A stretch of DNA of 24,000 bases from Acinetobacter sp. YH16052 (GCF_013417155.1 NZ_VPEO01000002.1:106481-130480); one strand, 5' to 3'. Positions 543 to 21,628 are shown, counted from the stretch's first letter. Translations and numbers: made by a program. Notes: a model not told the origin generated them from the sequence alone.

Positions 543-3500
543 TTACCACTCAAACCAGCGGACAGGCTTAATCTTACGTGCCTGGCTATATTTATACAGA
601 TTTTGATCTGTTAAAGTTGTATTTGCAGGCTTACAATTTCCGACACAAGATTCTTGTGTCTCCGCAATAGGTCCAACCAACATGGTTGTTCTTGGATCAG
701 TAGAGGAAACAGCACCAAAGGCAGGGCCATTAATACCTTGATAGCTAGTTTTAACATATGCAGCACAGTCACCATATGGCATGCAAATACGGTGAGTCGT
801 AGAAATACCTGCCACACCACCACCACAACCACTTACAGTTCCAGTCAATGTCGCTTTCGGATCATACAGGCTGACATATAAATCACCAGTAATAAGCTGT
901 GAATCTTCAAATGCACGCGCATAATTTCCTGAATCAACTGAACGTAGTTCAAAACTCCAACCACGAAGCATAGTATTACCAGTTGTTAATTTCATATTAG
1001 CGATATCAGCAGCAGAAATTTGCTTAGAAACCGTTTTGCCAAGTATGCCTGAATTAGCCAAATTCGCTGGCAAAATAGTCGCAGCAGATGTAAAACTCGA
1101 GTTTTCCAAACCATTGGCTGCTGCATCACGGTCAATTAAACCGTAGATTTTGTTTTTTCCGCCGACTTCCGCTTCCAAAGGAAAACTGCGATTACCTGAA
1201 CCTGCTGTCACAAGTACAAAGCGGTTTTGCCCATCATCAAAAACTGCCGTAGATAAACGGTCATAGAAACGCGGTACAAATGTTCCATCTTTTAACTTCG
1301 CTATGGTTTGCACACGCACCGCAATATTAGTATTGTCAGTTGCAGACATTTGATTATTGTTATTCAAGTCTACACGGAAAATCTGTCCACCTAAATCTGC
1401 AAAATAAATCATGTCTGCAAGACCATCGGCATCATAATCACGTACCACAGGCTGCCCTACAACACTGTAATTTATATCACTATTAATCGTTTTCTTATAA
1501 CTGTCACTAATTCCTGAGCCATTTGAGCTACTCATCCAGATCAAGTTACCATTTGCAGCATCTACTATATATAAAGCGTTGCCATAAGTTGAGGACGGCT
1601 CTGTAAAAGTAGCCGCTGGTTTTTCATAAACATCAGCATCGTAACCGCCGCCAAAAATTAAGACTTTTTTACGTTCGCCTTTGACACGAATTTCAGCAAT
1701 AGTCGGTTTAGCCCAGATTTGAGCCATACGCTGAAATTCATTTGTTGATGTCGGTTTAATTTGGAATAATAGCTTCGGACTTGCTGGATTAAGTATATCC
1801 AATCCATAAAGCCCACTTCCCCCCATACGTAAACCGCCATAAATATTCATTTTATTGGCAACATATTTTGTGGTTGAAACTGTACCAGACTTAGTAATTT
1901 GCACCTTAAATGTATTGTCCGCTACCCATGGTGCATCTACACCATAAGCTATACCCGACAGGCTACCCACCCCTTTTGAATCTTTACCAGCCAACGTATC
2001 ATATTGATTCGTTATAATTTCTGGCGGAACAAATACCGACTGCTCTTTACCTGTCGAAGCATCCACAATATGCAAGCCGCCATCCATTGACCCATAAACT
2101 GTATATTCTTTACGTGTATCCGCAACATTACTAGAAGTTACTGTTGACTCTTTTGTTACCATGAGCGGCGTTGAATGCACCACCCCACCAAGGAATCTAT
2201 ATGGGCTAGCCGGATTTACTGCGAGCGTATTAATTTCTGTAGAAGTTAAAGTTGTCTGTGTCGCGGCTGCAGGAAATACAGTTTGATAACCCATATAATT
2301 CAACAAAGCTAGGCGCTGGTTAATTGTGTAAGTCCCGCTCAGAGCATCTGTACCAGTAGTATTCGTTGCCAGATTTGTCTTAGTCACTTTTTTTAAAGAA
2401 CTGCCATCTAAGATGTAGACTTTACGCTCACTATCTTTATTGCTGATTGAGTCTGCTTCAGCCAAAGCTGTAGATGGAACAGGAATTTTATTCCATGCAC
2501 CACCACTATTAATTAATGAATGGTCAGAGCCAGAAGCCGCGGTAGACCATAAATCTTTTGCAGATGAGTTAATAACCTGCTGATTGTTTTCAACTTTATA
2601 AATTGCATTATTACTGCTGTCTTTCAGCGTACCGTCAAGAATTTTATATTTCTTTAAATTCCCAGCCCATGTACGAAAGGTAGAATCTTCCATAGGCATA
2701 ATCATTGGGAAAAAACCTTCAGTCATAGATTTTGTCTGATCTAAAGGATCACGCGGTACAGATATGGAACCTAGGCTAGATGGGGTGAAACTAACTTCTA
2801 CATCCGATACAAATTTAATAATACTGTTTTTAATGTCATCCGCATTTTCGGCATAGTAGAAACCTCCGTCTCCATATTCAGCTCCGCCCCATTTACATGC
2901 ATTGTATGCATCTGGGTTATAATTTGATTTTGTAGGATCATTCACCGCTTCGCAGTTATAACTACCATCTCCATTTTCTGGAATACCGGCGAAAGAAGAA
3001 CCAAAACCAACCACTGCAGTTTTAATTTTCATATTGGCAGGGTTTTTGGTTGGGTCAAGAATCTTTTTTGAGTATGCCCCAATATATTCCCAACCTCCTG
3101 TTTCACCCGAAAATAGGTTAGATTTTAAAGCAGGGGAAACCAATACACTCCCGGTTGGTTTTGCAGAAAAACCATACGTTCCTGCTGGACTACCAGAGGC
3201 TAGAGTGGTGGTGAGCGTGTCATTCATAATCGCTCTTGCCATACTGTCTTTAGTCGAGTTAGGTGCACCATCGGTTAAGAAGTAAATACCGTTACCATTA
3301 CAACTACCCTCTGAACCACCTATATTGTATTTTGTGCCTGCTGCATTTTTGGTATCATTAGCGGAATAGGAAATACCACCACTTAAATTGTCAGTATAGG
3401 GGTTGCCAGAAGCCGTAAGAGCCGATTCCGTCAAAGCAAAAGGGTTAGTTCGGTAAGTCACTAAGTTACGAAAATCAGTATTTTGATCCCACGCTGCAGC

Positions 3501-4859
3501 AGCAACAGGCTCAATATCCATAGGTAGATTATCTACTTTCATCCAGCCGCCATAACGCCAACCCGATGGAAATTTTGAATATAACTGCCAATTATCATCT
3601 ACGGTGCCCATTCTAGTGATAAACTCTGTTTTAGCTACCGAATTATCCTTAATTCGAATCCAGCCCCCGTTACCATTAGGCTTATAAACATTATCAATCG
3701 TATCATTATGTACAGCTTTTCCATTACGGTACGGCCAAGAATTGATACATTGCTTAACATTATTGGTCCCCCCCAAGGCGTTCGTTGGCGTGGTCCCCAA
3801 TTCAACACAAATAAAATACGCTTGATCATCTTGATCACTAGTACTAGTTCTTCGTCTTAGTTGAGTTGCACCATCATATACATAATTAATATAATTGGTG
3901 GACAGACTGTTTGGGCGAGTTTGAGTTCCCATCATATAAGCAGCAGCTTCAGCATAAGCATGTGCAGTTGGGGTTCCGCTGGATGCTTTCTTAATGTCTT
4001 GCGGTGGATTTTTTGATGAGTAACGTTGTTTACTGGCAGTAAAGTTTTGAGTTTTACCGGATCCTACGTTATCTGTCACACTCTCAGTGTCAGCGTTAGA
4101 ACCATCTTGTTTTGTTTTTGTATCTAAAGACTGAAACTGGGCAATCGCCTGAATGAGCCTTAATCGATGTGCTCTCCCAACCGCATCCTTAGTCAGGGCT
4201 ACGTTTGGTACGAGAATATTACCTGAGTGCCCATCGACAAATTGAACATTACTACTCGCCGAACCCACTTTAAGTGAGGTTTGGGTAGAAAAGTGTCCCA
4301 AACCAATACTCACATCCGATAAGCTATCTTCATCTGCCAACAAGGTAATAATGGCATCTTTCAAGCGAGATAAACGGTCAAACTTACCTGTATTGCTTTC
4401 CACTAAATTACCATTACTATCGACTGTCGCTGTTCCACAACCACGCACATAGTAAGGTACAGTGGTACCGTTTACGATGACTGCTTTATAAAATGAGGTT
4501 TTAGTCCTTGTAGGGTTGGTAATCAAGGTGCCATTTACCCTCACTTGAGTACGGGTATCTATCGCATCATATTGGTACTCACGCATATTCCCCGCTTTAT
4601 TCCCACCAGACTCATGTACTTCCTGTTGAGCACATAAGGTACTATCCACATCCCCAGGGCTACCATAAGCATTATTTTTCGGCAGTACTAGAGAACTAAT
4701 CCCCATACTTCCTGATGTATCCAGCATTAACAGAATAGACGTTTTTCCAGTCGTATTTCCTCTATACAGGCTCAAGTCACTTGCAAGGACTGCTGTACTT
4801 GTTGGTACCGCCATCACTGGAAGCAAGGCCATCATTATTACAAGGGGTTTTAATCTCAT
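543..4859 (-). CDS. pilY1: PilY1-family type IV pilus tip adhesin / biogenesis factor (1438 aa)
   Basis: The protein has a signal peptide and an N-terminal vWA-like MIDAS motif LLMLDTSGSMG (nt 4701-4721). Its C-terminal region carries an EF-hand-like loop DYDADGLAD (nt 1413-1439) followed by IYFADLGGQIFRVD, as in the PilY1/PilC beta-propeller. It sits between pilX and pilE, and GGGAGAAGAG precedes the ATG. Confidence 0.9.
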   Translation of the reverse strand: MRLKPLVIMMALLPVMAVPTSTAVLASDLSLYRGNTTGKTSILLMLDTSGSMGISSLVLPKNNAYGSPGDVDSTLCAQQEVHESGGNKAGNMREYQYDAIDTRTQVRVNGTLITNPTRTKTSFYKAVIVNGTTVPYYVRGCGTATVDSNGNLVESNTGKFDRLSRLKDAIITLLADEDSLSDVSIGLGHFSTQTSLKVGSASSNVQFVDGHSGNILVPNVALTKDAVGRAHRLRLIQAIAQFQSLDTKTKQDGSNADTESVTDNVGSGKTQNFTASKQRYSSKNPPQDIKKASSGTPTAHAYAEAAAYMMGTQTRPNSLSTNYINYVYDGATQLRRRTSTSDQDDQAYFICVELGTTPTNALGGTNNVKQCINSWPYRNGKAVHNDTIDNVYKPNGNGGWIRIKDNSVAKTEFITRMGTVDDNWQLYSKFPSGWRYGGWMKVDNLPMDIEPVAAAAWDQNTDFRNLVTYRTNPFALTESALTASGNPYTDNLSGGISYSANDTKNAAGTKYNIGGSEGSCNGNGIYFLTDGAPNSTKDSMARAIMNDTLTTTLASGSPAGTYGFSAKPTGSVLVSPALKSNLFSGETGGWEYIGAYSKKILDPTKNPANMKIKTAVVGFGSSFAGIPENGDGSYNCEAVNDPTKSNYNPDAYNACKWGGAEYGDGGFYYAENADDIKNSIIKFVSDVEVSFTPSSLGSISVPRDPLDQTKSMTEGFFPMIMPMEDSTFRTWAGNLKKYKILDGTLKDSSNNAIYKVENNQQVINSSAKDLWSTAASGSDHSLINSGGAWNKIPVPSTALAEADSISNKDSERKVYILDGSSLKKVTKTNLATNTTGTDALSGTYTINQRLALLNYMGYQTVFPAAATQTTLTSTEINTLAVNPASPYRFLGGVVHSTPLMVTKESTVTSSNVADTRKEYTVYGSMDGGLHIVDASTGKEQSVFVPPEIITNQYDTLAGKDSKGVGSLSGIAYGVDAPWVADNTFKVQITKSGTVSTTKYVANKMNIYGGLRMGGSGLYGLDILNPASPKLLFQIKPTSTNEFQRMAQIWAKPTIAEIRVKGERKKVLIFGGGYDADVYEKPAATFTEPSSTYGNALYIVDAANGNLIWMSSSNGSGISDSYKKTINSDINYSVVGQPVVRDYDADGLADMIYFADLGGQIFRVDLNNNNQMSATDNTNIAVRVQTIAKLKDGTFVPRFYDRLSTAVFDDGQNRFVLVTAGSGNRSFPLEAEVGGKNKIYGLIDRDAAANGLENSSFTSAATILPANLANSGILGKTVSKQISAADIANMKLTTGNTMLRGWSFELRSVDSGNYARAFEDSQLITGDLYVSLYDPKATLTGTVSGCGGGVAGISTTHRICMPYGDCAAYVKTSYQGINGPAFGAVSSTDPRTTMLVGPIAETQESCVGNCKPANTTLTDQNLYKYSQARKIKPVRWFEW

Positions 4860-5694: not shown

Positions 5695-6665
5695 TAAATA
5701 TCCCCCAATCCACCATTACGGATTGCAATTGTTGTGGTGTAAACCTGACGCATGTAACCGTCTTTTGTCGCAGAAATCGCCTGATCTAAAACTTTGAATT
5801 CTGTTTTTTCAGCCATTGCGACCTTTTCTGAAGAACGTACAAGCCAGCCTAAATTCACACCAATTACCGCTGGGCGCGGCAATGTCGTAATTGCTTTATA
5901 GTCATTCACACCTAAAGTACGTGTAGTACCATTGGTATTACGAACAACCAATTGCACTCGCATATACTCAATATTTTTTGCAATAATTTCGCCAGCATTT
6001 GCTGCATAATTTGCTGTCAGTGTATTTACAGCATTAATAGTTTGAGACTCATAAGTTTGTGGAACAGTTTCTCCATCTGCAAGAAACATACTTGAGGAGC
6101 AATTCAAGTTTGCTTCACTTTTAGAACTATCCTTACTAATGTAATAACGCTCAATGACATACCAGCCTTTGGCATAAGTTGTACTTGTTTTTATTGGCCC
6201 TCGTACTTTTTTACCATCACATGTAAAAGTATCCATAGGTGCTTGATACATAATGACCAGCTGATCACTTTTTGGATAAGTATTAAATGCGCTGTCATTA
6301 TTTACACTTGCTGACAATAAATTATCGCCAGACAGTAATGCTGTGCCAATTTTCAAACCTTTTAAATTACCATCTGCCGGAGGGGTAGCAGTACTGCTTG
6401 TTTGATTGCTTAATACAATACCGCCATACAATGACGCATCATTAATAATTCCAGCATTGCCGTGGTTCGCCAAACGAATATTCTTCGTGACGTAGTTGAT
6501 CCCAAATAAACCACTATCTTGCAAAGATGCGGCCGAGGATTGAATCCGATAGTTTTGCTGCCCACTTATAAGCATTTGAATTGCTACGGCCACCAAGATC
6601 AGACCGAGTGTAATCGCAACCATTAATTCAATAAGCGTGAAACCTGCCTGTTTAAACACTTTCAT
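5694..6665 (-). CDS. pilW: PilW-like minor pilin
   Basis: Prepilin signal [22 protein letters not shown] chose the ATG at 6665, which overlaps the pilV TAA by 1 nt, over the ORF-track start at 6689. Confidence 0.8.
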   Translation of the reverse strand: MKVFKQAGFTLIELMVAITLGLILVAVAIQMLISGQQNYRIQSSAASLQDSGLFGINYVTKNIRLANHGNAGIINDASLYGGIVLSNQTSSTATPPADGNLKGLKIGTALLSGDNLLSASVNNDSAFNTYPKSDQLVIMYQAPMDTFTCDGKKVRGPIKTSTTYAKGWYVIERYYISKDSSKSEANLNCSSSMFLADGETVPQTYESQTINAVNTLTANYAANAGEIIAKNIEYMRVQLVVRNTNGTTRTLGVNDYKAITTLPRPAVIGVNLGWLVRSSEKVAMAEKTEFKVLDQAISATKDGYMRQVYTTTIAIRNGGLGDI

Positions 6666-7174
6666 TAATATGCCTCCAGCACCAAGCAACTAGAATCATC
6701 TGCATATTTTCCATCTGTTTTTAAACATGCATTTTGAACTGCGGGAGCATCTGGAGTAGCTTTAGCATCAGTAATTGGCTGAGTTTCCCCCCAAGCCGCG
6801 ATTAAACATAATCGCTCCTGACTTGCCGAAGTATTTAAACAATTAATTACCCCAACTTCCATCCCTTTTGATACCGCAACATCACTGTATTGTTTTAAGT
6901 CATAAAGCGCCTGATTCACGGCATTGCAGCCACTATCACAATTAGGCAACGCACTTGGAATAGCGGCCTTGTAATTACCTGTCGGATTTAATCTTACTTT
7001 TTCTGCAAGCCCATTCAGCAAAATAAGCGCATCAGCCCTTTTAATCGATTCTTCAGTCGCAGCCGTAGCTCTAACTTGCAGCGCAGCATAGCCTAAAATT
7101 GCTATAGCAAGAATCAGCATCGCAACTAAAACCTCCATCAACCCAACGCCTTTTTGGCTGGAAACACTTATCAT
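6665..7174 (-). CDS. pilV: PilV-like minor pilin
   Basis: Prepilin-like N-terminus SSQKG/VGLMEVLVAMLILAI with Glu at +5. The ATG at 7174 forms an ATGA overlap with the fimU TGA. The ORF-track start at 7180 is a TTG. Confidence 0.8.
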   Translation of the reverse strand: MISVSSQKGVGLMEVLVAMLILAIAILGYAALQVRATAATEESIKRADALILLNGLAEKVRLNPTGNYKAAIPSALPNCDSGCNAVNQALYDLKQYSDVAVSKGMEVGVINCLNTSASQERLCLIAAWGETQPITDAKATPDAPAVQNACLKTDGKYADDSSCLVLEAY

Positions 7175-7662
7175 GAGCAAGCTCCTCCTTGTGCAATTTC
7201 AACTGTTCCAGGAATACCAACTGTTAATACATATGACCCAGCAGAAGAACAAAAAGTAATTGTTTTGGAAGCACTTAAATTTCCCCGAGCCGAAAAAACA
7301 AAACTATCATCTGAAGTGCTTTTTAAATTTATTTTTTTCTCAACATTTACAATAAGAACGCTATCTTTTTTAAGGGAAGTTGTCATGCTGGTTGAATAAT
7401 TTGTTAATGCTGCCCCACATCCAGCTTCTGTTACCGCAACAGCTGACTTATTTATTGAAGTACAAACCACAGTTTCATTTCGATTCAACATGGCGCGGCT
7501 TCTAGCTTCTTTTAATGTATCCCTCATGTTATAAGCTGTTGTTTTAAGATTTTGCTTAATTATCAAATTCCCAAAAGAAGGCGCCGCCATCATCGCCACA
7601 ATCGCCAGCACCGCAATGGTGACCATCAATTCAATTAAGGTAAATCCCTGACTTTTTCGCAT
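7171..7662 (-). CDS. fimU: GspH/FimU-family minor pilin, first gene of the minor-pilin operon
   Basis: Prepilin signal [22 protein letters not shown]. The size (163 aa) and first position in the operon match fimU of the fimU-pilVWXY1E arrangement. GGGGGAGAG precedes the ATG. I saw no C-terminal GRxR-type motif of the kind described for DNA-binding FimT. Confidence 0.7.
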   Translation of the reverse strand: MRKSQGFTLIELMVTIAVLAIVAMMAAPSFGNLIIKQNLKTTAYNMRDTLKEARSRAMLNRNETVVCTSINKSAVAVTEAGCGAALTNYSTSMTTSLKKDSVLIVNVEKKINLKSTSDDSFVFSARGNLSASKTITFCSSAGSYVLTVGIPGTVEIAQGGACS

Positions 7663-13179: not shown

Positions 13180-13330
13180 ACTCATCTGAGTCTGGATCGA
13201 TTCGATGTCGATTTTCATTTGCTGTTCCTTGACATCCTCACCTCTCTAAATAGAGCTGATTCCTCCTGCGAGACGCTTATGCCCAAGCGCAAGTATGTTC
13301 TTAGCACTATTCAAGTCCCGATCCAGAACA
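13180..13330 (-). ncRNA. Predicted omega-RNA (reRNA) scaffold overlapping the tnpB 3' end and right end
   Basis: This call rests on position only. In characterised TnpB systems the guide RNA scaffold covers the 3' end of tnpB plus the right end. Local stem-loops are present, such as ATCGA...TCGAT at 13196-13206 and ACTC/GAGT around 13181-13192. No covariance-model search was possible. Confidence 0.3.
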
Positions 13331-14307
13331 CTTGAACAGTTTTCACATTCCCATACTCTTATTCGCAAATCTGCTCTACCTTTCGGACTGCTTGCAGTGA
13401 CCTCACCACAGCATGAACACATTTGGGTTGTGAAACTTTCACTAACTTCTTCAAACCATACTCCTGCGTTCTCGCATTTATACTTGAGCATGGTCTTGAA
13501 TGCTGAAAATCCGGTATCCAGAACAGACTTCGCCATCTTGGTTTTCACCAGTTTTTTCGCACTCAGATCGCCTACAACAATTAGTGCATTTTTCTTTATA
13601 AGCATTGTACTCGCTTTGTGCAAATGGTCTTTACGACAGTTTGCAATCTTGGCGTGTAATGCACGGACCCGTTTTCTATTTTTCGCTCGTTGAGCAATCC
13701 CTAATTTCTGTTCATATTGACGGTAGAACTTGGGATTTGAAATTATCGTACCATCCGAACAAGTGGCTATATCCTTTAAGCCCAGATCAATCCCAATCAA
13801 ATTAGTCGCAGTCGATTTCTCAATTTTAGGGCTATTCACAACTAAGCAGACATACCAGCGGCCACGCGCATCCTCGACAAACGAACCAGTCTTGATACTG
13901 TAATTTGACAGTCCATAGCTATCCCATATTTTAAACTGATGCTTGCCATACTGGATATGGCCATCAGCATACTTGATTGCTACTTTCTTAAAGGGTATCC
14001 AACCTAGTGATCTTCTGGCTGATTTCTTATGACTGACCCGCCATCTTAGTTTGGTCTTCTTGAATTGCTTTCTGCGTATGACTAATTCTTCGGTAATAGC
14101 CTGAATGGTTTGACTATGTAACCCACAAAGCCTAGATGTACCTTTCGTATATTCAGCAATATCGTAAGCACTGAGAAATTCACCTTTTCTTTTAAGGTGT
14201 TTAAAGCTTAAATCATTGACATAATTCCAGACGAAATTCACTTCAGATGCTAATTGCTCTAATATCTTGGAATGTTTATCTTTAATGCGTAATTTAAGTG
14301 TTTTCAT
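13246..14307 (-). CDS. tnpB: TnpB (OrfB) RNA-guided endonuclease-like transposon protein, 353 aa
   Basis: RuvC-I is IGIDLGLKD, the RuvC-II Glu is in VWFEEVSESFTTQ, and RuvC-III is LDRDLNSAKNI. The zinc ribbon is CSCCG...CENC. The basic bridge region is QRAKNRKRVRALHAKIANCRKDH. Confidence 0.93.
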   Translation of the reverse strand: MKTLKLRIKDKHSKILEQLASEVNFVWNYVNDLSFKHLKRKGEFLSAYDIAEYTKGTSRLCGLHSQTIQAITEELVIRRKQFKKTKLRWRVSHKKSARRSLGWIPFKKVAIKYADGHIQYGKHQFKIWDSYGLSNYSIKTGSFVEDARGRWYVCLVVNSPKIEKSTATNLIGIDLGLKDIATCSDGTIISNPKFYRQYEQKLGIAQRAKNRKRVRALHAKIANCRKDHLHKASTMLIKKNALIVVGDLSAKKLVKTKMAKSVLDTGFSAFKTMLKYKCENAGVWFEEVSESFTTQMCSCCGEVTASSPKGRADLRIRVWECENCSSVLDRDLNSAKNILALGHKRLAGGISSI

Positions 14308-14538: not shown

Positions 14539-15003
14539 ATGAAAGGCAATCGTGATGTGATTAATCAGCTCAATCAGGTGTTGTATCACCACTTAACTGC
14601 CATTAACCAGTATTTCCTGCATTCGCGCATGTTTAATGACTGGGGCATTGAGAAACTGGGCTCGGCAGAATATAAAGAATCCATTGTTCAGATGAAACAT
14701 GCCGACAAAATTATTGAACGTATTTTATTTTTGGAAGGTCTGCCGAATTTACAGAATCTGGGCAAACTGTATATTGGTCAGCATACTCAAGAAGTGCTGC
14801 ATTGTGATGTGCGCAAAGTTAAAGAAAATATTGAAGCCATCCAGAAAGCAGTCGCGCTGGCTGAAACCCAAATGGATTATGTAACGCGTGATCTGGTACA
14901 GGAAATCCTAGAGAAAGAAGAAAACTATCTGGATTGGACCACGACACAAATCGATCTGATCGAGAATATTGGCATCGAAAACTATATTCAAAGTCAGCTC
15001 TAA
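14539..15003 (+). CDS. bfr: Bacterioferritin
   Basis: MKGNRDVINQLNQVLYHHLTAINQYFLHSRMFNDWG gives the ferritin-like di-iron motifs. The protein is 154 aa, with GGAG upstream. Confidence 0.95.
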   Translation: MKGNRDVINQLNQVLYHHLTAINQYFLHSRMFNDWGIEKLGSAEYKESIVQMKHADKIIERILFLEGLPNLQNLGKLYIGQHTQEVLHCDVRKVKENIEAIQKAVALAETQMDYVTRDLVQEILEKEENYLDWTTTQIDLIENIGIENYIQSQL

Positions 15004-15019: not shown

Positions 15020-15047
15020 AAAAAGCCAGCATCTGCTGGCTTTTTTG
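15020..15047. terminator. Bidirectional rho-independent terminator shared by the convergent bfr and pglL-like genes
   Basis: AGCCAGC-ATCT-GCTGGCT is flanked by an A-run on one side and a T-run on the other. Confidence 0.8.
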
Positions 15048-15050
15048 TAT

Positions 15051-16685
15051 TTAGCGAGGTACATCCTGCGTTAATTCTTCATAACTCATTTCAGTTTTCT
15101 GAATGGTCTTTAAGCGTTGCAGCTGGTGCTTGGCTTCCGCCTCATATCCATTAAAAGCTAAAAGTTTGGCATATTTGATCAGGTTATATTTAGTCGGATA
15201 ACTCAAGACCATTTGTTCACCTTCCTGAATCTGTTCAGCAGACGCTTTGCTATAAGGATTCAGACGAATCCAGGCAATACGATGATTAAACTCAGTCAGT
15301 AGATAAATTGGTTTTTCATTGGTGATTTTTTCCGGCTGTTTTTCATAACGAATACTTTGCCCGAGTTTTGGTACTGCAACATCATAATCGCGATAAATCA
15401 CAATTAATAGAAGTAACCCAACAGAAAAAATGAATTTCATACCAATTGATGGCATAACCACTTTTTTAGTTTTTGGACTTTGTGCCAGAACCGTACCCAG
15501 AATAAAACCTACTGGCAACAGGAAATAGGCATAATGCTGTGGAAACTCAAACATGGCATGTGTGACAAATGCTCCAATCATCAAAATTCCAATGACAGAC
15601 TCTGGCGTATTGACCCAGCGTTGCAACTGATAGCCCAAATAACCAAAGTAGGCCAAGAAAGGCAGACCGATGATTAATCCATTCCAGAGCAAAAAGTCCA
15701 GAATAAAATTATGTGAACTACGAATCCAGACCGGACCTTGCACCGTATCACTAATCGAGACAAAAGCGACACTGGTCTGATACCAGCCATAGCCAAACCA
15801 TGGCTGCGCCTGAATGGCTGCCAGCATCTGCTGCCAGATTGCGAGGCGTGACATATCACCGGTAGCACGCGCTACTACATCTCGGCTTTGGACTACGTCC
15901 GTATTCATCACCTGTGCAGCCAGCTGACTGAGTAATGGAAAAGCCACAATACAGCAAATAAAGAAGATGAACCAAGCGGTGCTGTAAACCCATTTCAGGT
16001 GAATAATGCCTTTATATTGGTAGAACGCTAAATACAGCATGATGGCGGTTGCAGCGACCCATGCAGTACGCGACTGACTTAACGCCACTCCCATGACAAT
16101 CACAGCAGCGCAGGCAAACAACCATTTGGTCTGGATTTTTTTCTTTTCATAGAGGTACAAACAGCTCATCAATGCCATGACTAAAAAAGTTGCCATATTA
16201 TTGGGCTGGGCGAAGTTGGCATAGGGCCGCTGATTGCCACTGATATTCACCATGCCTGGCAATATTGAGTCAAGATTTATCCACTGACATAGAGCAATTA
16301 ATCCTGTAATGGTGCCTGACACCAAGAATACATAGCTTAAATGGGTAAAGGTTTCTTCTCGGCTATTGTTTCCTGTAGAAAAATTATAGCCAAGTACACT
16401 TGCCAGCCAAAAGCTAAAAACAAAAATAAAGCCCATCATGGCAGTGCTAAAGAAAAATACCTGTCCTGTCAGAAAATGTATCAGTGGTACACAGGCGAGT
16501 AGCAATAATGGCAGACTGAGAGCTGGAATTTTGAGTTTTTCTTTGAGGCAAATTGCAGCTAAAGCAAATAGTACAAAAAAGGCATATAGCTCACCCGTAT
16601 ATGTCACCCAAGGCCGATAATGAATGGGCATGAGCCATGCAAGGGAAATGAGAATTGCTGCTATTAGAGCGAGCATGAATTTCAT
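15051..16685 (-). CDS. pglL: O-antigen-ligase-family (Wzy_C) polytopic membrane protein, PglL-like general O-oligosaccharyltransferase
   Basis: About 12 predicted TM segments. Motifs are RPYANFAQPNNMATF, LSQSRTAWV, QPWFGYGWYQTS, SSHNFILDFLLWNG and HAMFEFPQHYAYFLLP. Its position next to bfr and near pilA matches the described Acinetobacter pglL locus. The symbol is assigned by synteny and architecture only. Confidence 0.7.
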   Translation of the reverse strand: MKFMLALIAAILISLAWLMPIHYRPWVTYTGELYAFFVLFALAAICLKEKLKIPALSLPLLLLACVPLIHFLTGQVFFFSTAMMGFIFVFSFWLASVLGYNFSTGNNSREETFTHLSYVFLVSGTITGLIALCQWINLDSILPGMVNISGNQRPYANFAQPNNMATFLVMALMSCLYLYEKKKIQTKWLFACAAVIVMGVALSQSRTAWVAATAIMLYLAFYQYKGIIHLKWVYSTAWFIFFICCIVAFPLLSQLAAQVMNTDVVQSRDVVARATGDMSRLAIWQQMLAAIQAQPWFGYGWYQTSVAFVSISDTVQGPVWIRSSHNFILDFLLWNGLIIGLPFLAYFGYLGYQLQRWVNTPESVIGILMIGAFVTHAMFEFPQHYAYFLLPVGFILGTVLAQSPKTKKVVMPSIGMKFIFSVGLLLLIVIYRDYDVAVPKLGQSIRYEKQPEKITNEKPIYLLTEFNHRIAWIRLNPYSKASAEQIQEGEQMVLSYPTKYNLIKYAKLLAFNGYEAEAKHQLQRLKTIQKTEMSYEELTQDVPR

Positions 16686-16723
16686 GGAAATATCAAGCGG
16701 TAGAAGTTTGGCACATGATAAAC

Positions 16724-16759
16724 AAAAAGCAGATTAAAGGGGAATCTGCTTTTTGTTTT
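16724..16759 (-). terminator. Hairpin terminator between the 245-aa gene and the pglL-like gene
   Basis: AGCAGATT-AAAGGGG-AATCTGCT (16728-16750) has T-runs on both strands. Confidence 0.6.
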
Positions 16760-16776
16760 GATCTTTCAAATACAAG

Positions 16777-17508
16777 TTAGTTCCACGGGCGAAGGTCGAC
16801 GATTGCAAGTGGTTTACCCTGTGCATCAAGCAGTACCGTCATATCTATTTGACTTGCCTTTAGTGGTACAAATCCTACTGCTGTAGGTGAGTCGTCTAAA
16901 ATTTTACGAACACTTAATGCCTCATTGTACTCATAAAGTTTTCTAATATTCAAAATATTTTTACCTAGCACAAGTGCTTTATTATCAAATTCAATATAAC
17001 GATCTGGCATTTGTGATAATGACACTCCTCCAAGCACTTCCGTAAATAAATCAGCTTGACGCTTTTGAATATCTGTAGCCACCTCAACCATCACATATTG
17101 GGGTTTTAATAATGAGGGCTGTTTGTACTGTGGGTGTGCCTTTTCAATATTTTCATTGATGATTTCATTTTTACGCACAAGCTCAAAACGGTCTACATTA
17201 TAAACAATCCAAGCTGGTCGCCCCTGCTCCAAACTATAAATACCATACATCAAAGCCGAAATCTGGATCAAAATAATGACAGTCAAATCAAATTTTAAGG
17301 TTTTTTTATGTTCTTTATAAACCAATAAACCTAATAAAGGTCCAACAATAATATCAATAGCAAATAACATTAAAATGATATAAGTTACACCAACAGCTTT
17401 TGCAAGTGGTGTAGGGTACCAACAGTAAAAAACAACCCCAAGCACCACTAGGGCAATGATAAAGGATAACGTTAGATGCTTGATAAAAAACTGAATACGC
17501 TTTGTCAT
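16777..17508 (-). CDS. 3-TM membrane protein, putative type IV pilin accessory protein (TfpX/TfpY/TfpZ/FimB-like)
   Basis: Three N-terminal TM helices (LTLSFIIALVVLGVVFYCWYP, VTYIILMLFAIDIIVGPLLGLLVY, LTVIILIQISALMYGIY) precede a soluble C-terminal part of about 150 aa. The gene lies in the pilA downstream cassette. The family assignment comes from remembered architecture and the WYP / GPLL-type motifs, and was not searched. The ATG at 17508 is preferred over the TTG at 17514. Confidence 0.45.
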   Translation of the reverse strand: MTKRIQFFIKHLTLSFIIALVVLGVVFYCWYPTPLAKAVGVTYIILMLFAIDIIVGPLLGLLVYKEHKKTLKFDLTVIILIQISALMYGIYSLEQGRPAWIVYNVDRFELVRKNEIINENIEKAHPQYKQPSLLKPQYVMVEVATDIQKRQADLFTEVLGGVSLSQMPDRYIEFDNKALVLGKNILNIRKLYEYNEALSVRKILDDSPTAVGFVPLKASQIDMTVLLDAQGKPLAIVDLRPWN

Positions 17509-17514
17509 AACCAA

Positions 17515-19173
17515 TTACTTCATGTTTGGGGCTGATAGATCATCATGCTTTTTTAAAAATAGCGATGCAATATTATTACTTTGGTGTGTATCGATTTTTG
17601 ATAAATCTTTGAATAAAGCCTTTTTATTATATAGTGCATTCGATACTTCAAAATAATAATTTGCTTTCACCCAATCTTGATTAAAGTAAAATATTTGTGC
17701 CATTTTAAATAAATTATAGTAGCTTGGTTGACTAACTACATAGTGCTCAAATGAATCTAATTTGTCTTCAGCATACTGTTTATCCACTTTTGCAACAATA
17801 AACTCAGCTCGATCTGCAAACTGTGAAAAAATGACTGATTGCTTATTTTGTGATTGACCTGTATTTTCCATACCTGATGCATAGCCCAGATTCGTCAACC
17901 ATTGATCATATTGTTGAAATATTAAAGCGTAAAATATAATTGAAAATAAAAAAGTTACTTGCTTTAATTTTTCATTGATTGAGATTGTATTGACATTGCA
18001 ATTTATCAATAATACTCCAACAAAGAACCCCAAAGGGAATAAGAAATAGCTATAATATAGTGGATATTCAAGCTGAGCATGCACCAATATACATAGCATC
18101 ATTATAAATACATAAAGTTCATCTGTTGTTTTAATATTACAAATAATCACCTTGATTAAGTACAAACTATAAAAAATCAAAAGAATACCGAATGGAATGC
18201 CTACCCATAGTATTAAATCAATCATAATATTATGTGCACTTGAGAGATTGCCTTCATTTTTAAACAGCAGTACACCTTGAAGCTGAGCAATCGTAGTTTG
18301 ATACCATCCATAGCCAAGCCAAGGCTGCTGTTGGATGGCATAGATCATATGCTTCCACATTTCAATACGCGCAAAACCACCATTAATACGATCTTCTAAA
18401 GGTACAGGTATAACCAAATTAAAATATTGTGCGATCTGTGCATTAAATATAAAAATTAGCGCATATGAACAGAAGAAAAACGATAGTAAATAATGTGTTG
18501 TTCTTTTTTTGAAACGAATTTTTTTAAATAGATATCTAAACAACAGTACAATCAAAATAATCCAAGTTGTTCTAGATTGCGTCAAAGCAAGTGCAAGAAA
18601 TTGTAAAAAGAGTATAGGGATATATATAAAACATTTGTATTTAAGCTGTTCATATAAAAACACAACACTACAAATACTCAGCATCAAAAGTGTTGCCAAA
18701 TGATTCGGCTGACCTAAATTTGCATAAGGTCGATTGTGAATTAAATTTAAGATACAAGGATGAGAAATTTGCAACCATTGCGCAATGGCGAATAGACTAC
18801 TAATCAATCCAATAAGCGTATAAAAATACGCAATATATTGAATAATTTTATTTTTATCAGCCAAGTGATGGCTATTATAGCCATATAAAACAGTGGCTAC
18901 AAAAGCAAAAATGAAAATAAAACTCAAAAATGCCGTAGAAAAATAATATACCTGCCCAAAAGTAAATTGGACTAAAGGAATGAAACATATACAAAGAATA
19001 GGAATAGTAATTTTAGGCAGTTTAACTTCTTTTTTATAAAATAAGCTAAAAGATAAAATTAGACCCAAAAACCATAAAAAATCTTGCGAAGATGAAGTCC
19101 ATGGAAACGCAGATAGGCCTATAAAGTAAGATAACCCAAAACAAAGAAAAATTATAAAAATTATAATACTCAT
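17515..19173 (-). CDS. Pilin-linked O-oligosaccharyltransferase paralog (Wzy_C family; TfpO- or PglS/PglL-ComP-like)
   Basis: It shares its architecture and motifs with the 15051-16685 protein. Its versions are RPYANLGQPNHLATL, LTQSRTTWI, QPWLGYGWYQTT, SAHNIMIDLILWVG and HAQLEYPLYYSYFLFP. It lies immediately downstream of pilA. Confidence 0.75.
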   Translation of the reverse strand: MSIIIFIIFLCFGLSYFIGLSAFPWTSSSQDFLWFLGLILSFSLFYKKEVKLPKITIPILCICFIPLVQFTFGQVYYFSTAFLSFIFIFAFVATVLYGYNSHHLADKNKIIQYIAYFYTLIGLISSLFAIAQWLQISHPCILNLIHNRPYANLGQPNHLATLLMLSICSVVFLYEQLKYKCFIYIPILFLQFLALALTQSRTTWIILIVLLFRYLFKKIRFKKRTTHYLLSFFFCSYALIFIFNAQIAQYFNLVIPVPLEDRINGGFARIEMWKHMIYAIQQQPWLGYGWYQTTIAQLQGVLLFKNEGNLSSAHNIMIDLILWVGIPFGILLIFYSLYLIKVIICNIKTTDELYVFIMMLCILVHAQLEYPLYYSYFLFPLGFFVGVLLINCNVNTISINEKLKQVTFLFSIIFYALIFQQYDQWLTNLGYASGMENTGQSQNKQSVIFSQFADRAEFIVAKVDKQYAEDKLDSFEHYVVSQPSYYNLFKMAQIFYFNQDWVKANYYFEVSNALYNKKALFKDLSKIDTHQSNNIASLFLKKHDDLSAPNMK

Positions 19174-19186
19174 ATTAACTTTATTC

Positions 19187-19215
19187 TAAAAAAAGCTGAC
19201 CGAAGTCAGCTTTTG
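19187..19215 (-). terminator. Rho-independent terminator after pilA
   Basis: On the minus strand, AGCTGAC-TTCG-GTCAGCT is followed by TTTTTTT. It lies 13 nt after the pilA stop codon, with 14 nt between the end of its T-run and the next ATG (19173). Confidence 0.8.
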
Positions 19216-19227
19216 ATTCTTAATATT

Positions 19228-19779
19228 TTAGAATGTTCCAGCAGTTTGAGAAACACGGCATGTTGCTGGAAGATATTTTTGCATTGCTGCAAGCTCTGTT
19301 GATACAGGACCACAGCTCCACTCTTTAATTAAAGCACCAGCAGCTGTATTAGTTGCTGGAGAAACGGTTGAAATAGTTAAATTAGAACCGTTAGCTAATT
19401 TAGGTGTCATGTAGATATATTTACCACTTGCTCCTTTTAAAGAAGGATCCGTAGTTAACAATACTTGAATTTGACCAACTGCCATTCCAGTAGAAGAAAC
19501 TTTGATTGTTTGTACATATTTAGTGGCTGCAGTAGCTGCTGCCGTACCTGAGCCCTGTTCACACCCCCATAAAGCATCTGTACCTGATGGGATTGAACCT
19601 GAATCAACGGCTTCCGTTACTGCTGTACGACAAGAAGAAGCAGCTAAAATACCTTCAGATACTTTTGCACGAACTGTATAATCTTGGTATGCAGGAAGTG
19701 CAACTGCAGCAAGAATACCGATAATTGCTACAACAATCATTAATTCAATAAGGGTAAAACCCTTTTGTACTGTATTCAT
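19228..19779 (-). CDS. pilA: Major type IVa pilin (prepilin)
   Basis: [34 protein letters not shown] is the canonical leader and alpha1-N. A C-terminal disulfide pair lies in [24 protein letters not shown] sits 6 nt before the ATG at 19779. The ORF-track start at 19791 adds 4 unlikely codons. Confidence 0.9.
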
Positions 19780-19851
19780 AACATTCTCCACAAATGTTTT
19801 TGTTTATTTATAAGCCTAAAGAAAGAGCTCATTTAGCTTAATTTTATATTT

Positions 19852-19867
19852 AGCACTAAGTATGCCA
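19852..19867 (-). promoter_or_regulatory. Sigma-54 (-24/-12) promoter candidate for pilA
   Basis: The minus strand reads TGGCAT-ACTTA-GTGCT against the consensus TGGCAC-N5-TTGCW, with correct GG/GC spacing. It lies about 75-90 nt upstream of the pilA ATG. Confidence 0.65.
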
Positions 19868-19989: not shown

Positions 19990-20550
19990 TCACCCTAATA
20001 TAATGGGTTTATTTCCTAATTCATTCTTTAAATCATCTATTTTTCGATCATAATATTGATCTAATACGTGTCCAATCTCTTTTACGCCTTCAATTACACC
20101 TTCTTTAAATTTCTTTTGCTTTAATTGCTGAATGATATTTTGGCAAATCTGATCCCAAACTTCTTGAGTTGTCGCCTGTTTGATGCCTCGATCAATCACG
20201 ATTTCAACCTTATGTTCGCAAAGGTTTAAGTAGAGAAGTACACCACTGTTATATTCGGTGTCCCAAACGCCCAGTTCAGCAAACAACTGACGGGCACGAC
20301 ACAACGTATCCTGATAATAGGCCGATCGTGAAGGTAAACAGCCTTCAATCACTACCTGAATTTCCCCCACATGCCCATGCTCAGCTTCTTCAACAGCTAA
20401 TGCAATTACATGCTGATCTTGCTTAGAGAAAAACCGCTTGGTTGCTGGCATATAAAAGAAATGCTTGAACCATCGCTTAAAACTCGGCTGTGCATATTCT
20501 TCCAGCTTCGGTTGTGTGACAATTTCTGTTGTATCTGTAGTTGTTACCAT
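19990..20550 (-). CDS. TPM-domain (TLP18.3/Psb32/MOLO-1 family) protein, cytoplasmic type
   Basis: FSKQDQHVIALAVEEAEHGHVGEIQVVI ... NSGVLLYLNLCEHKVEIVIDRGI shows the TPM fold pattern. The start overlaps the upstream stop by 7 nt (ATGGTAA). Confidence 0.8.
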   Translation of the reverse strand: MVTTTDTTEIVTQPKLEEYAQPSFKRWFKHFFYMPATKRFFSKQDQHVIALAVEEAEHGHVGEIQVVIEGCLPSRSAYYQDTLCRARQLFAELGVWDTEYNSGVLLYLNLCEHKVEIVIDRGIKQATTQEVWDQICQNIIQQLKQKKFKEGVIEGVKEIGHVLDQYYDRKIDDLKNELGNKPIILG

Positions 20551-21596
20551 GAGCCTGATGCTCCTCCCCCACCAAAACCGCCACCGCCACCGCCGAAGCC
20601 GCCGCCGCCAAAACCACCTCGACCGCTACCGCCGCCTCGGCCGCCACCGGCTAAAAAGGCATGTAATATCAGCTGGGCTATAGAAGTTATCAATAAAAAG
20701 AAAATACCTGTACCAATCATTAAACTTGCAAGCAAACCCATGCCATTGACCAGACCGGCAGCTGTACCTGCAACTGCGGCAGTCGCAGCGCTCAGTTTTC
20801 TGCCGAAAATCATGGAACCCACGACACCTGCGACAATAATAAACAGCACACTACTGAACGTTGCCTTGCTGGCTTTTTGTGCCTGATAAGCCTGTTCCTG
20901 ACGTTCTTTAAGCTCATCGGCCGCCTGTGCTGCAATTTCAGGATCCAGATTTAAAATCCGTTCTATTTCAGTCAGACCTGCAGCAATCCCTTGCGCATAC
21001 TGCCCTTGCTTAAAATACGGTGTGATGGTGTCATGAATAATCCGGCCTGCCACGATATCGGGCAGCACCCCTTCCAGACCATAACCAGTCAGAATTTGTA
21101 TACGGCGATCATTGATAGCAATGGTCATGAGTAAACCATTATCGCGTTTGGCTGAACCGAGTTGCCAAGCGTCGGCCACGCGCATGGAATAATCAAAAAT
21201 ATCTTCCTGACCCGTGGTCGGAACAATCACGATACCAATCTGGCCTTTACCGGCATTATGCAAGTTTAAAATACGTTGGCTAATCGCCTGCTTCTCAGCT
21301 GAGCTGAGTAAATTTGCCTGATCAATCACCGGTTCATTCAGACTGGGTAAATCACGCTGAATTTGCCCTTCCGCCATATCATTGGCAATTTGTGGCTGCC
21401 GGGCAGAGTCTACTTCAATATCCGTTTGAGCTGTTTGAGGATTAGTTGCAGCCGGCTTTTGTAATATTTCACGCGCTACAATGACTTCTTCAGTATCCGT
21501 TGCTGTCGCAGTCTCACTCCAAGCCAGATTGCTCAGGCTCATTGTTAAACTGAGCAATAGCCCGATACAGAATTGTGCAGCCAGATTATGCCTCAT
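20544..21596 (-). CDS. Secreted/membrane TPM-domain protein (YgcG-like) with Gly-rich C-terminal tail
   Basis: The protein has a signal peptide and a TPM domain (VIDQANLLSSAEKQAISQRILNLHNAGKGQIGIVIV...NGLLMTIAINDRRIQILTGYGLEG). TM segments follow, then the tail GGGRGGGSGRGGFGGGGFGGGGGGFGGGGASGSW. The ATG at 21596 (AAGGTGG upstream) is preferred over the GTG at 21605. Confidence 0.8.
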   Translation of the reverse strand: MRHNLAAQFCIGLLLSLTMSLSNLAWSETATATDTEEVIVAREILQKPAATNPQTAQTDIEVDSARQPQIANDMAEGQIQRDLPSLNEPVIDQANLLSSAEKQAISQRILNLHNAGKGQIGIVIVPTTGQEDIFDYSMRVADAWQLGSAKRDNGLLMTIAINDRRIQILTGYGLEGVLPDIVAGRIIHDTITPYFKQGQYAQGIAAGLTEIERILNLDPEIAAQAADELKERQEQAYQAQKASKATFSSVLFIIVAGVVGSMIFGRKLSAATAAVAGTAAGLVNGMGLLASLMIGTGIFFLLITSIAQLILHAFLAGGGRGGGSGRGGFGGGGFGGGGGGFGGGGASGSW

Positions 21597-21628
21597 TGCA
21601 GCCACCTTCTCTCTTCTGAAGTTTGATA

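Follow-up and report, generated by a model that had tools for sequence, protein, structure and literature searches.

The DNA analysed here is a 24,000-nucleotide stretch of the genome of Acinetobacter sp. YH16052 (the window; GCF_013417155.1, NZ_VPEO01000002.1:106481-130480), and we interpret the part of it between positions 15,051 and 19,791, with moderate confidence that extends to the mechanism proposed below, as the major type IVa pilin locus of this A. lwoffii-group strain. Four open reading frames (ORFs) lie there on the minus strand, at the coordinates given in an earlier annotation made from the sequence alone (the original prediction). They are pilA, for a type IVa major prepilin of 183 amino acids (aa) with matches to the Pfam families Pilin and N_methyl (19228-19779); OT1, for a pilin-linked 552-aa PglL-type O-oligosaccharyltransferase (O-OTase; 17515-19173); a tfpZ-like gene for a 243-aa TfpX/TfpZ (FimB-like) pilin accessory protein (16777-17508); and OT2, for a 544-aa core PglL, apparently the general O-OTase ortholog, next to the bacterioferritin gene bfr (15051-16685). 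Two start codons differ from those listed before, where the pilA ORF ran from 19228 to 19791 (187 aa from a GTG) and the tfpZ-like ORF from 16777 to 17514 (245 aa from a TTG). pilA most likely starts at the ATG at 19779, with the leader MNTVQKG followed by FTLIE. Because Met3 of the accessory protein (245-aa numbering) is invariant among its homologs, tfpZ most likely starts at the ATG at 17508, 6 nucleotides (nt) past the stop codon of OT1.

The downstream neighbour named in the original prediction, bfr (14539-15003, plus strand; TIGR00754, E = 4.3e-61), is the conserved right-hand boundary of the locus. On the left, a TPM-domain gene (19990-20550, minus strand; Pfam) is the conserved boundary of a variable island. 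One flank consists of bfr and a lone TnpB gene, the other of two TPM-domain genes, LemA and gltD, and a minor-pilin operon is situated about 8 kb from the pilin locus. GC content is 29-33% over pilA and OT1, 36-38% over tfpZ and 42-47% over OT2. The dN/dS values of all four genes lie between 0.07 and 0.38 (0.14-0.27 for OT1 and 0.07-0.09 for OT2), indicating purifying selection.

On sequence criteria, OT1 and OT2 are PglL-type protein O-OTases and not WaaL ligases. Both match the Pfam families Wzy_C, Wzy_C_2 and PglL_A above the gathering scores (50.5, 33.1 and 49.5 bits for OT1; 59.5, 36.6 and 50.5 bits for OT2), and PglL_A (PF15864) was built specifically to tell PglL from WaaL (PMC3643930). 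The two proteins had been described as clear paralogs, and they are: they share 27% identity over 538 aa (E = 6e-67), and their alignment contains the motifs RPYAN, QSRT, QPW[LF]GYGWYQT, [AS]HN and E[YF]P..Y.YFL.P that had been quoted. The residues regarded as PglL-specific in Neisseria meningitidis, namely Q178, N180, G316, G318, H400, E404 and P406 (PMC3643930), have the OT1 counterparts Q155, N157, G287, G289, H365, E369 and P371. In a 50-sequence alignment all of these except H365, which is nearly so, are invariant, as are H314, R262 and R269. The active-site residues proposed for PglS, R159, R271, R278, H324 and E379 (PMC12800693), align with R148, R262, R269, H314 and E369 of OT1 and with R153, R273, R280, H325 and E380 of OT2. 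OT1 also matches a solved oligosaccharyltransferase of 610 aa (9rmk_A, E = 8.5e-17), whose catalytic His349 aligns with OT1 His314. That either enzyme is a WaaL ligase, which the original prediction had named as a finding that would count against it, was rejected: both carry PglL_A and the PglL-specific residues, and their neighbours are pilin, TPM and bfr genes, not lipopolysaccharide (LPS) genes. NCBI has a protein from Acinetobacter sp. YH16052 that is 100% identical to OT1. Its AlphaFold2 (AF2) model scores well (pLDDT 85, pTM 0.88), but a Foldseek search of this model against the PDB gave nothing significant (best match FtsW, 8p1u, E = 6e-3) and retrieved neither WaaL nor 9rmk, so the structural search contributed nothing on top of the sequence match to 9rmk_A. 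No NCBIfam model names OT1 or OT2.

The two enzymes fall in different places in a neighbour-joining tree of 60 sequences (Poisson correction, 100 bootstraps). All 39 OTases that are adjacent to bfr and downstream of tfpZ, including OT2 and the A. calcoaceticus enzyme, form one clade with a bootstrap of 100. OT1 and its orthologs (seven sequences) form a clade of their own, also with a bootstrap of 100, which is sister to a pilin-linked enzyme of A. pragensis (bootstrap 84). The PglS proteins of A. baylyi ADP1 and A. soli, whose comP-pglS loci we reached by way of an A. baylyi ComP sequence that matched a database entry at 100%, make up a separate bootstrap-100 clade outside both the OT1 and the core PglL clades (bootstrap 79). 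Similarly, BLAST matches of OT1 score 130-137 bits against PglS and 214-280 bits against PglL-like proteins. We therefore rejected OT1 as a PglS ortholog on the basis of this phylogeny and of its pilin, which has no ComP-type sequon: in ComP the sequon is a disulfide-flanked Ser84, C...ISASNATTNVATAT...C (PMC6385209), and the loop of the window pilin (Cys50-Cys73, ending ...WGC) is different. OT1 does not resemble TfpO or TfpM either. Those enzymes are about 420-470 aa long (PMC9829042) and have neither PglL_A nor Wzy_C_2 (PMC12645811), whereas OT1 is 552 aa long, has both domains and accompanies a pilin that does not end in Ser or Thr; with A. parvus TfpM it gave no BLASTP alignment at E <= 1e-3. 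OT1 thus represents what is, as far as its sequence goes, a distinct and uncharacterised pilin-linked clade.

For OT2, gene order adds to the phylogeny. The general OTase of A. baumannii is A1S_3176, whose genetic context has been listed as 'pilin' (PMC3643930). We found that the primers published for its knockout (PMC3369928) encode the start of the upstream pilin and, in reverse complement, a fragment of bfr (SRMFNDWGIEQLG; the window bfr reads SRMFNDWGIEKLG), which places this functional PglL between a pilin gene and bfr. From this placement and from the bfr-adjacent clade we identify OT2 as the core PglL ortholog, and by the same orthology and synteny it would be a general O-OTase acting on many proteins. 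OT1 lies directly after pilA in 8 of 8 loci of its type, and the gene for a pilin-dedicated OTase is usually a neighbour of the gene for its substrate (PMC12645811). Phylogeny and synteny both fit the idea, already put forward in the original prediction, that the locus has one enzyme dedicated to the pilin and another of general function.

The protein encoded between the two OTases is, as had been proposed, a member of the TfpX/Y/Z family with three transmembrane (TM) segments. It matches NCBIfam NF041437 ('TfpX/TfpZ family type IV pilin accessory protein') over the whole profile (1-240 of 240; E = 1.5e-89, 299.8 bits against a cut-off of 200), its orthologs carry the precomputed Pfam assignment PF27166 'FimB', and it has 1689 homolog clusters. 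Proteins of this family have three N-terminal TM helices and a periplasmic alpha/beta domain that ends in a three-stranded antiparallel sheet (PMC11841053). The window protein has hydrophobic helices at about residues 14-31, 41-65 and 76-94 and a C-terminal domain of about 150 aa, and a low-confidence AF2 model made from an 11-sequence alignment places helices at 5-32, 43-67 and 73-96 and strands at 214-219, 224-229 and 235-239 (pLDDT 71-88 at the strands). In Pseudomonas aeruginosa, TfpY raises surface piliation and twitching and promotes pilus assembly without modifying the pilin, and TfpX is dispensable for glycosylation by TfpW (PMC11841053).

The closest solved structure to the pilin is N. 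meningitidis PilE (E = 7.8e-21, residues 12-184), which aligns with it along its entire length. The window pilin has two cysteine pairs, 50/73 and 156/174 (prepilin numbering from the ATG at 19779). The region around PilE Ser63, the site glycosylated by PglL (PMC6385209), aligns with the stretch that follows the Cys50-Cys73 loop. This stretch differs in length among seven orthologous pilins, has a high content of Ser, Thr, Gly and Ala, and closes with a conserved A-[ST]-K-Y-V-Q. We did not adopt A-[ST]-K-Y-V-Q itself as the glycosylation site: similar motifs occur in pilins that have no adjacent OTase. The C-terminal tails also vary among the orthologs (QTAGTF, QS, Q, QTAGS, QTAGTYSN); the window pilin ends in Phe (...QTAGTF), and the last residues of the others are S, Q, S, F, N and S. 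A large OTase is the next gene in 6 of the 9 pilins that have a Cys43-Cys64..67 loop (mature numbering), a count that includes by hand the A. pseudolwoffii locus L002, in which the start of the OTase ORF overlaps the pilin; these OTases come from three clades. Because acceptor sites are internal for large OTases such as PglL and PglS but C-terminal for small ones (PMC9829042), our best guess is that the acceptor is most likely an internal Ser or Thr in the variable stretch after the Cys50-Cys73 loop, where PilE has Ser63.

Several promoter-like and terminator-like elements punctuate the locus. Upstream of pilA (19852-19867, minus strand) there is a sigma-54-type promoter-like element by resemblance to the consensus, TGGCAT-N5-GTGCT (GG-N10-GC), and it overlaps a sigma-70-like match, TTGGCA-16-TAAAAT. 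A scan found a terminator-like hairpin (AAAA GCTGAC TTCG GTCAGC TTTTTTT; 19188-19214, minus strand) in the 54-nt spacer between pilA and OT1, ending 14 nt before the OT1 ATG. Its position corresponds to that of the terminator between the pilin and accessory genes in P. aeruginosa and other species (PMC11841053). The same scan placed a second hairpin between tfpZ and pglL (16720-16758, minus strand) and a bidirectional one between the convergent pglL and bfr genes (15020-15045).

The original prediction had treated the four genes as one composite cassette, and this did not hold up: pilA, OT1 and tfpZ form a low-GC, recombining island, and OT2 is a core gene that lies behind a terminator-like hairpin. 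Compared with the window, the backbone of other lwoffii-group loci is at least 95% identical for LemA, 84-92% for PglL and 95-99% for bfr. Within this same backbone, tfpZ is 99% identical only in the two loci that share the pilin-OT1 cassette, and is 45-61% identical in loci with other cassettes. Across 32 pairs of loci whose PglL proteins are at least 80% identical, tfpZ identity correlates with identity in the variable region of the pilin (Spearman 0.38, p = 0.03) and, among pairs chosen by the same PglL threshold, shows no correlation with PglL identity (rho -0.13). tfpZ thus co-varies with the pilin cassette and not with the backbone. At the DNA level the window is about 100% identical to the A. 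lwoffii and A. pseudolwoffii loci L001 and L002 from about 18350 to 16800 (approximately 1.6 kb), a tract that includes the whole of tfpZ and the 3' third of OT1; identity is 65-85% over pilA and the 5' two-thirds of OT1, and 76-86% at the start of pglL. The tract at about 16800-18350 has the appearance of a recent recombination event with a breakpoint inside OT1. It is because of this mosaic structure and of the co-variation of tfpZ that we regard pilA-OT1-tfpZ as an exchanged island and pglL as a core gene.

We surveyed related loci by a TfpZ-like alignment scan with one genome per species, which yielded 49 loci (46 from Acinetobacter or close relatives, two from Moraxella and one from Neisseria), and annotated them by phmmer and hmmsearch against the window proteins, plus Pfam. 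The recurring layout is LemA-TPM-TPM, a variable pilin island, and then tfpZ-like-PglL-bfr. LemA-TPM-TPM flanks the island in most loci, and bfr is at the position equivalent to that in the window in 40 of the 49. A PglL-clade gene directly follows tfpZ in 38 of the 49 loci, with bfr also found in 36 of those; the remaining two are cut short or have no bfr match in the fetched stretch. The tfpZ-like gene is downstream of a pilin gene in all loci except two in which no upstream pilin was found. Most islands contain only one or two pilins. Eleven of the 49 loci encode a Wzy_C enzyme after the pilin and ahead of tfpZ: islands of the OT1 type in A. lwoffii VE245-5 (L001), A. pseudolwoffii ANC 5044 (L002) and Acinetobacter sp. 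A2 (L003); other OTases of 545-562 aa that are 25-33% identical to OT1 (L004, L015, L016, L019 and L046); a 394-aa Wzy_C protein (L012 and L013); and the 422-aa TfpM of A. parvus DSM 16617 (L024), whose pilin-TfpM pair appears in Table 1 of Knoot et al. 2022 (PMC9829042).

At least six further genomes have the four genes in exactly the order seen in the window, among them those of A. lwoffii, A. pseudolwoffii, Acinetobacter sp. A2, A. wanghuae (CP045650) and Acinetobacter sp. ASP199 (CP062182), and so do metagenome contigs. It was an exact-sequence look-up of OT1 orthologs that revealed pilin-OT1-FimB/TfpZ-PglL-bfr in A. wanghuae, in ASP199 and on the contigs, where OT1 is only 54% identical. 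The original prediction considered the combination of a Wzy_C-type OTase with a TfpX/Y/Z gene to be an unusual hybrid architecture. Given the survey and the ortholog look-up, with tfpZ-PglL in 38 of the 49 loci, Wzy_C upstream of tfpZ in 11 and the exact order found repeatedly, this combination is better described as a standard, recurrent feature of Acinetobacter. Among the findings that would count against it, the prediction had listed a survey in which this exact gene order proves to be common and already characterised. The survey largely bears out the first of these, but our full-text searches turned up no functional description of OT1 or of the Acinetobacter TfpZ-like protein, as the prediction had supposed, the only related item being an AlphaFold model of a TfpY-like protein of A. 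baumannii (PMC11841053).

The surveyed islands contain several other genes. A protein of the beta-lactamase family (PF00144; about 392-401 aa) directly follows the pilin, ahead of the tfpZ-like gene, in at least seven species, including A. calcoaceticus (L028; the other loci are L008, L012, L013, L025 at 6163-7362, L037 and L038). It has no obvious role in the pilus and could be a pilin-modifying or pilin-processing enzyme. Sulfatase/EptA-like genes occur between the pilin and the tfpZ-like gene in L012 (3645-5009), L013 (3647-5011) and L045 (4211-7972 region), and by analogy with Neisseria PptA they are possible phosphoform transferases; the L045 island also has an MFS fragment and a 514-aa protein with a spermidine-synthase domain between the same two genes. 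Acinetobacter sp. ANC 4862 has two copies of a 551-aa OTase on two contigs, about 70% identical and each followed by a tfpZ-like gene (L004 and L019). A pilin lies upstream in L004, the L019 contig begins at the OTase, and the canonical PglL-bfr site is present only in L019. In Neisseria montereyensis (L041, 6751-8744), two pilins with the alpha-beta-loop disulfide of the window type are followed by a TfpZ-like protein 46-49% identical to that of the window, which suggests that the pilin-accessory pair has been exchanged between families.

Every component of the locus belongs to a known family, there are close precedents in pilA-tfpO-pglL, comP-pglS, pilA-tfpW-tfpX and pilin-tfpM, and nothing established is overturned. 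The order in A. nosocomialis M2 is reportedly pilA-tfpO-pglL, according to secondary descriptions of Harding et al. 2015 (PMC6385209, PMC9829042). Like M2, the window has a pilin, then a pilin-linked Wzy_C O-OTase, and a general PglL at the same locus, so that two OTase paralogs lie beside pilA. Unlike in M2, the pilin-linked enzyme is PglL-like (552 aa, with PglL_A and Wzy_C_2) and not a TfpO of 440-470 aa, the pilin does not end in Ser, and a TfpX/Z-family gene stands between the two OTases. The comP-pglS pair of A. baylyi ADP1 (and of A. soli) lies at this same place in the chromosome, flanked by the TPM genes and bfr-BFD-RidA-SpoT, and there too a large O-OTase (PglS, 548 aa) directly follows its pilin substrate, which in ADP1 is glycosylated at an internal site. 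However, OT1 is outside the PglS clade, the window pilin is PilE-like and lacks the ComP Cys75-Cys95 sequon, and neither ADP1 nor A. soli has tfpZ or an adjacent PglL.

The order in P. aeruginosa group IV, pilA-tfpW-tfpX, is similar in that a pilin gene and a glycosylating enzyme precede a three-TM protein of the TfpX/Y/Z family, and the P. aeruginosa pilA cassettes (group IV, and groups III and V with pilA-tfpY and pilA-tfpZ) share with the window a terminator after the pilin, horizontal exchange and an accessory gene that tracks pilin type. The modifier in the window is, in contrast, a Wzy_C en bloc O-OTase and not a GT-C arabinosyltransferase like TfpW, and a general PglL follows the island. 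No tRNA genes were found within the window, so we rejected a tRNA-flanked pilA island of the P. aeruginosa kind. Among the pilin-tfpM loci, that of A. parvus DSM 16617 shares the overall architecture: its published pilin-TfpM pair (PMC9829042) is at the same site and is followed by tfpZ-like, PglL and bfr genes; TfpM differs from OT1 in being 422 aa long, in having Wzy_C only and in acting on a C-terminal Thr. With the Neisseria PglL-PilE system the window shares a PilE-like pilin and the alignment of the Ser63 region with a Ser/Thr-rich stretch, but in Neisseria pglL is general and not pilin-linked, and the window pilin has an extra disulfide in the alpha-beta loop.

These observations can be assembled into the following scheme, which we consider probable though well short of certain: OT1 attaches a glycan to an internal site of the neighbouring PilE-like pilin, the TfpZ-like protein promotes pilus assembly, and PglL acts independently of both. 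pilA would be transcribed strongly from its own promoter-like region. OT1 and tfpZ would be expressed at lower levels, by read-through of the terminator-like hairpin that comes after pilA, and since tfpZ starts 6 nt after the OT1 stop codon these two genes are probably co-translated. OT1, in the inner membrane, most likely transfers a glycan linked to undecaprenyl pyrophosphate onto the pilin in the periplasm. The TfpZ-like protein most likely is not itself a glycosylating enzyme and, by analogy with P. aeruginosa TfpY, would help its cognate pilin to enter pilus assembly. OT2 would act separately, on many periplasmic proteins.

Several points weigh against this scheme. It has been stated that an O-OTase cannot be assigned to a family from sequence alone (PMC9829042), and our tree is a neighbour-joining one built without references for TfpO, N. 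meningitidis PglL or A. baumannii PglL. [ST]-K-Y-V-Q is found also in pilins with no adjacent OTase, so the motif may be structural. The promoter and terminator calls are consensus matches, and the promoter-like sites are no commoner than in shuffled sequence. The AF2 model of the TfpZ-like protein is poor (mean pLDDT 56) and its middle is unreliable. The statistics on tfpZ co-variation rest on non-independent pairs, and the survey frequencies are approximate, coming from two peptide patterns and a single genome per species.

The acceptor site could also lie at the other end of the pilin, with OT1 glycosylating the C-terminal tail in the manner of TfpO and TfpM and not an internal loop. The tails past the last Cys are variable and carry Ser or Thr (QTAGTF, QS, QTAGS, QTAGTYSN), and with three of the seven orthologous pilins ending in Ser and two in Thr-Phe a site in the C-terminal region is conceivable; moreover, the well-studied pilA-adjacent TfpO and TfpM enzymes all act at the C-terminus (PMC9829042). 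We nevertheless think this unlikely, since Phe is the last residue of the window pilin and Gln that of the L002 pilin, whose tail has a single Thr, and since OT1, for which BLASTP gave no alignment with A. parvus TfpM at E <= 1e-3, has the length and the PglL_A and Wzy_C_2 domains associated with internal sites. The argument that OT1 is not pilin-dedicated at all, and that both it and OT2 are general O-OTases whose roles overlap or differ by glycan, draws on the closer similarity of OT1 to PglL-like proteins than to PglS, on its full PglL domain set and PglL-specific residues, and on N. meningitidis PglL, which glycosylates pilin along with many other proteins (PMC12645811). A general enzyme fits poorly with the facts that OT1 accompanies a single pilin type and disappears with a change of cassette, whereas the core PglL is retained, that it recombines together with the pilin, and that it sits behind the terminator-like hairpin of pilA, and we rate this explanation as quite unlikely.

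A further question is whether the TfpZ-like protein works together with OT1, as an adaptor that either offers it the pilin or links glycosylation with assembly; the trio would then be a new kind of module. Proximity speaks for such a partnership: tfpZ begins 6 nt after the OT1 stop codon and is adjacent to it in 8 of 8 OT1-type loci, a single block of about 100% identity spans tfpZ and the 3' third of OT1, and Wzy_C enzymes lie upstream of tfpZ in 11 of the 49 loci. But in the other 38 tfpZ-like loci no OTase separates the pilin from tfpZ, tfpZ is altogether absent from the comP-pglS loci of A. baylyi and A. soli, PglS works with ComP alone in E. coli, and in P. aeruginosa TfpX is not needed for glycosylation by TfpW and TfpY acts in assembly (PMC11841053); we regard the partnership as highly improbable. 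In a broader version, to which we give a very low probability as well, OT1 and its relatives (at least 35 sequence clusters, all from Acinetobacter where named) would be a fifth class of pilin-dedicated O-OTase, specific for an internal site in the alpha-beta loop of PilE-like, doubly disulfide-bonded pilins and acting with a co-translated TfpZ-like protein that couples glycosylation to delivery of the pilin into the assembly machine. If true, this would give the TfpX/Y/Z family its first biochemical partner. The scheme in which OT1 acts on an internal site of the pilin and the TfpZ-like protein in assembly is the one that we retain.

Outside the pilin locus, the window contains some other features. 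The TnpB gene adjoining bfr (13246-14307, minus strand; NF040570, E = 3e-72) encodes an RNA-guided endonuclease of the IS200/IS605 family and is not accompanied by TnpA. TnpB is found at the equivalent place in other lwoffii-group loci (L001, L005, L010, L011 and L017), and in Acinetobacter sp. ASP199 (L054) it lies between bfr and the BFD gene. In the minor-pilin operon, a 1438-aa ORF (543-4859, minus strand) occupies the PilY1/ComC position between pilX-like and pilE-like genes and has no Pfam match at E <= 1e-4; the adjoining 172-aa minor pilin matches ComP_DUS (PF16732). The TPM-domain protein encoded at 20544-21605 (minus strand) has a Gly-rich C-terminal tail (GGGRGGGSGRGGFGGGGFGGGGGGFGGGGASGSW). 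A proline-rich ORF of 158 aa (20410-20886, plus strand), antisense to a TPM gene, most likely arises from this composition rather than being a true gene.

What is new here is modest. There is a clade of large, pilin-linked O-OTases that is uncharacterised; a TfpX/Z gene travels with pilin-OTase cassettes in Acinetobacter; and the interval between TPM and bfr is a hypervariable island of pilin modification. Full-text literature searches, which did not cover Harding et al. 2015, found no paper describing these three points. With its near-constant TfpX/Z-family gene that follows pilin type, the Acinetobacter pilA island is a natural comparative system for studying the function of TfpX/Y/Z proteins. 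The glycosylation of pilins bears on resistance to phages, recognition by the immune system and adhesion, and O-OTases are the enzymes with which bioconjugate vaccines are produced. Together with PglL, PglS, TfpO and TfpM, the OT1 clade, which has a short candidate sequon, could be tested for the range of glycans and acceptors that it accepts.

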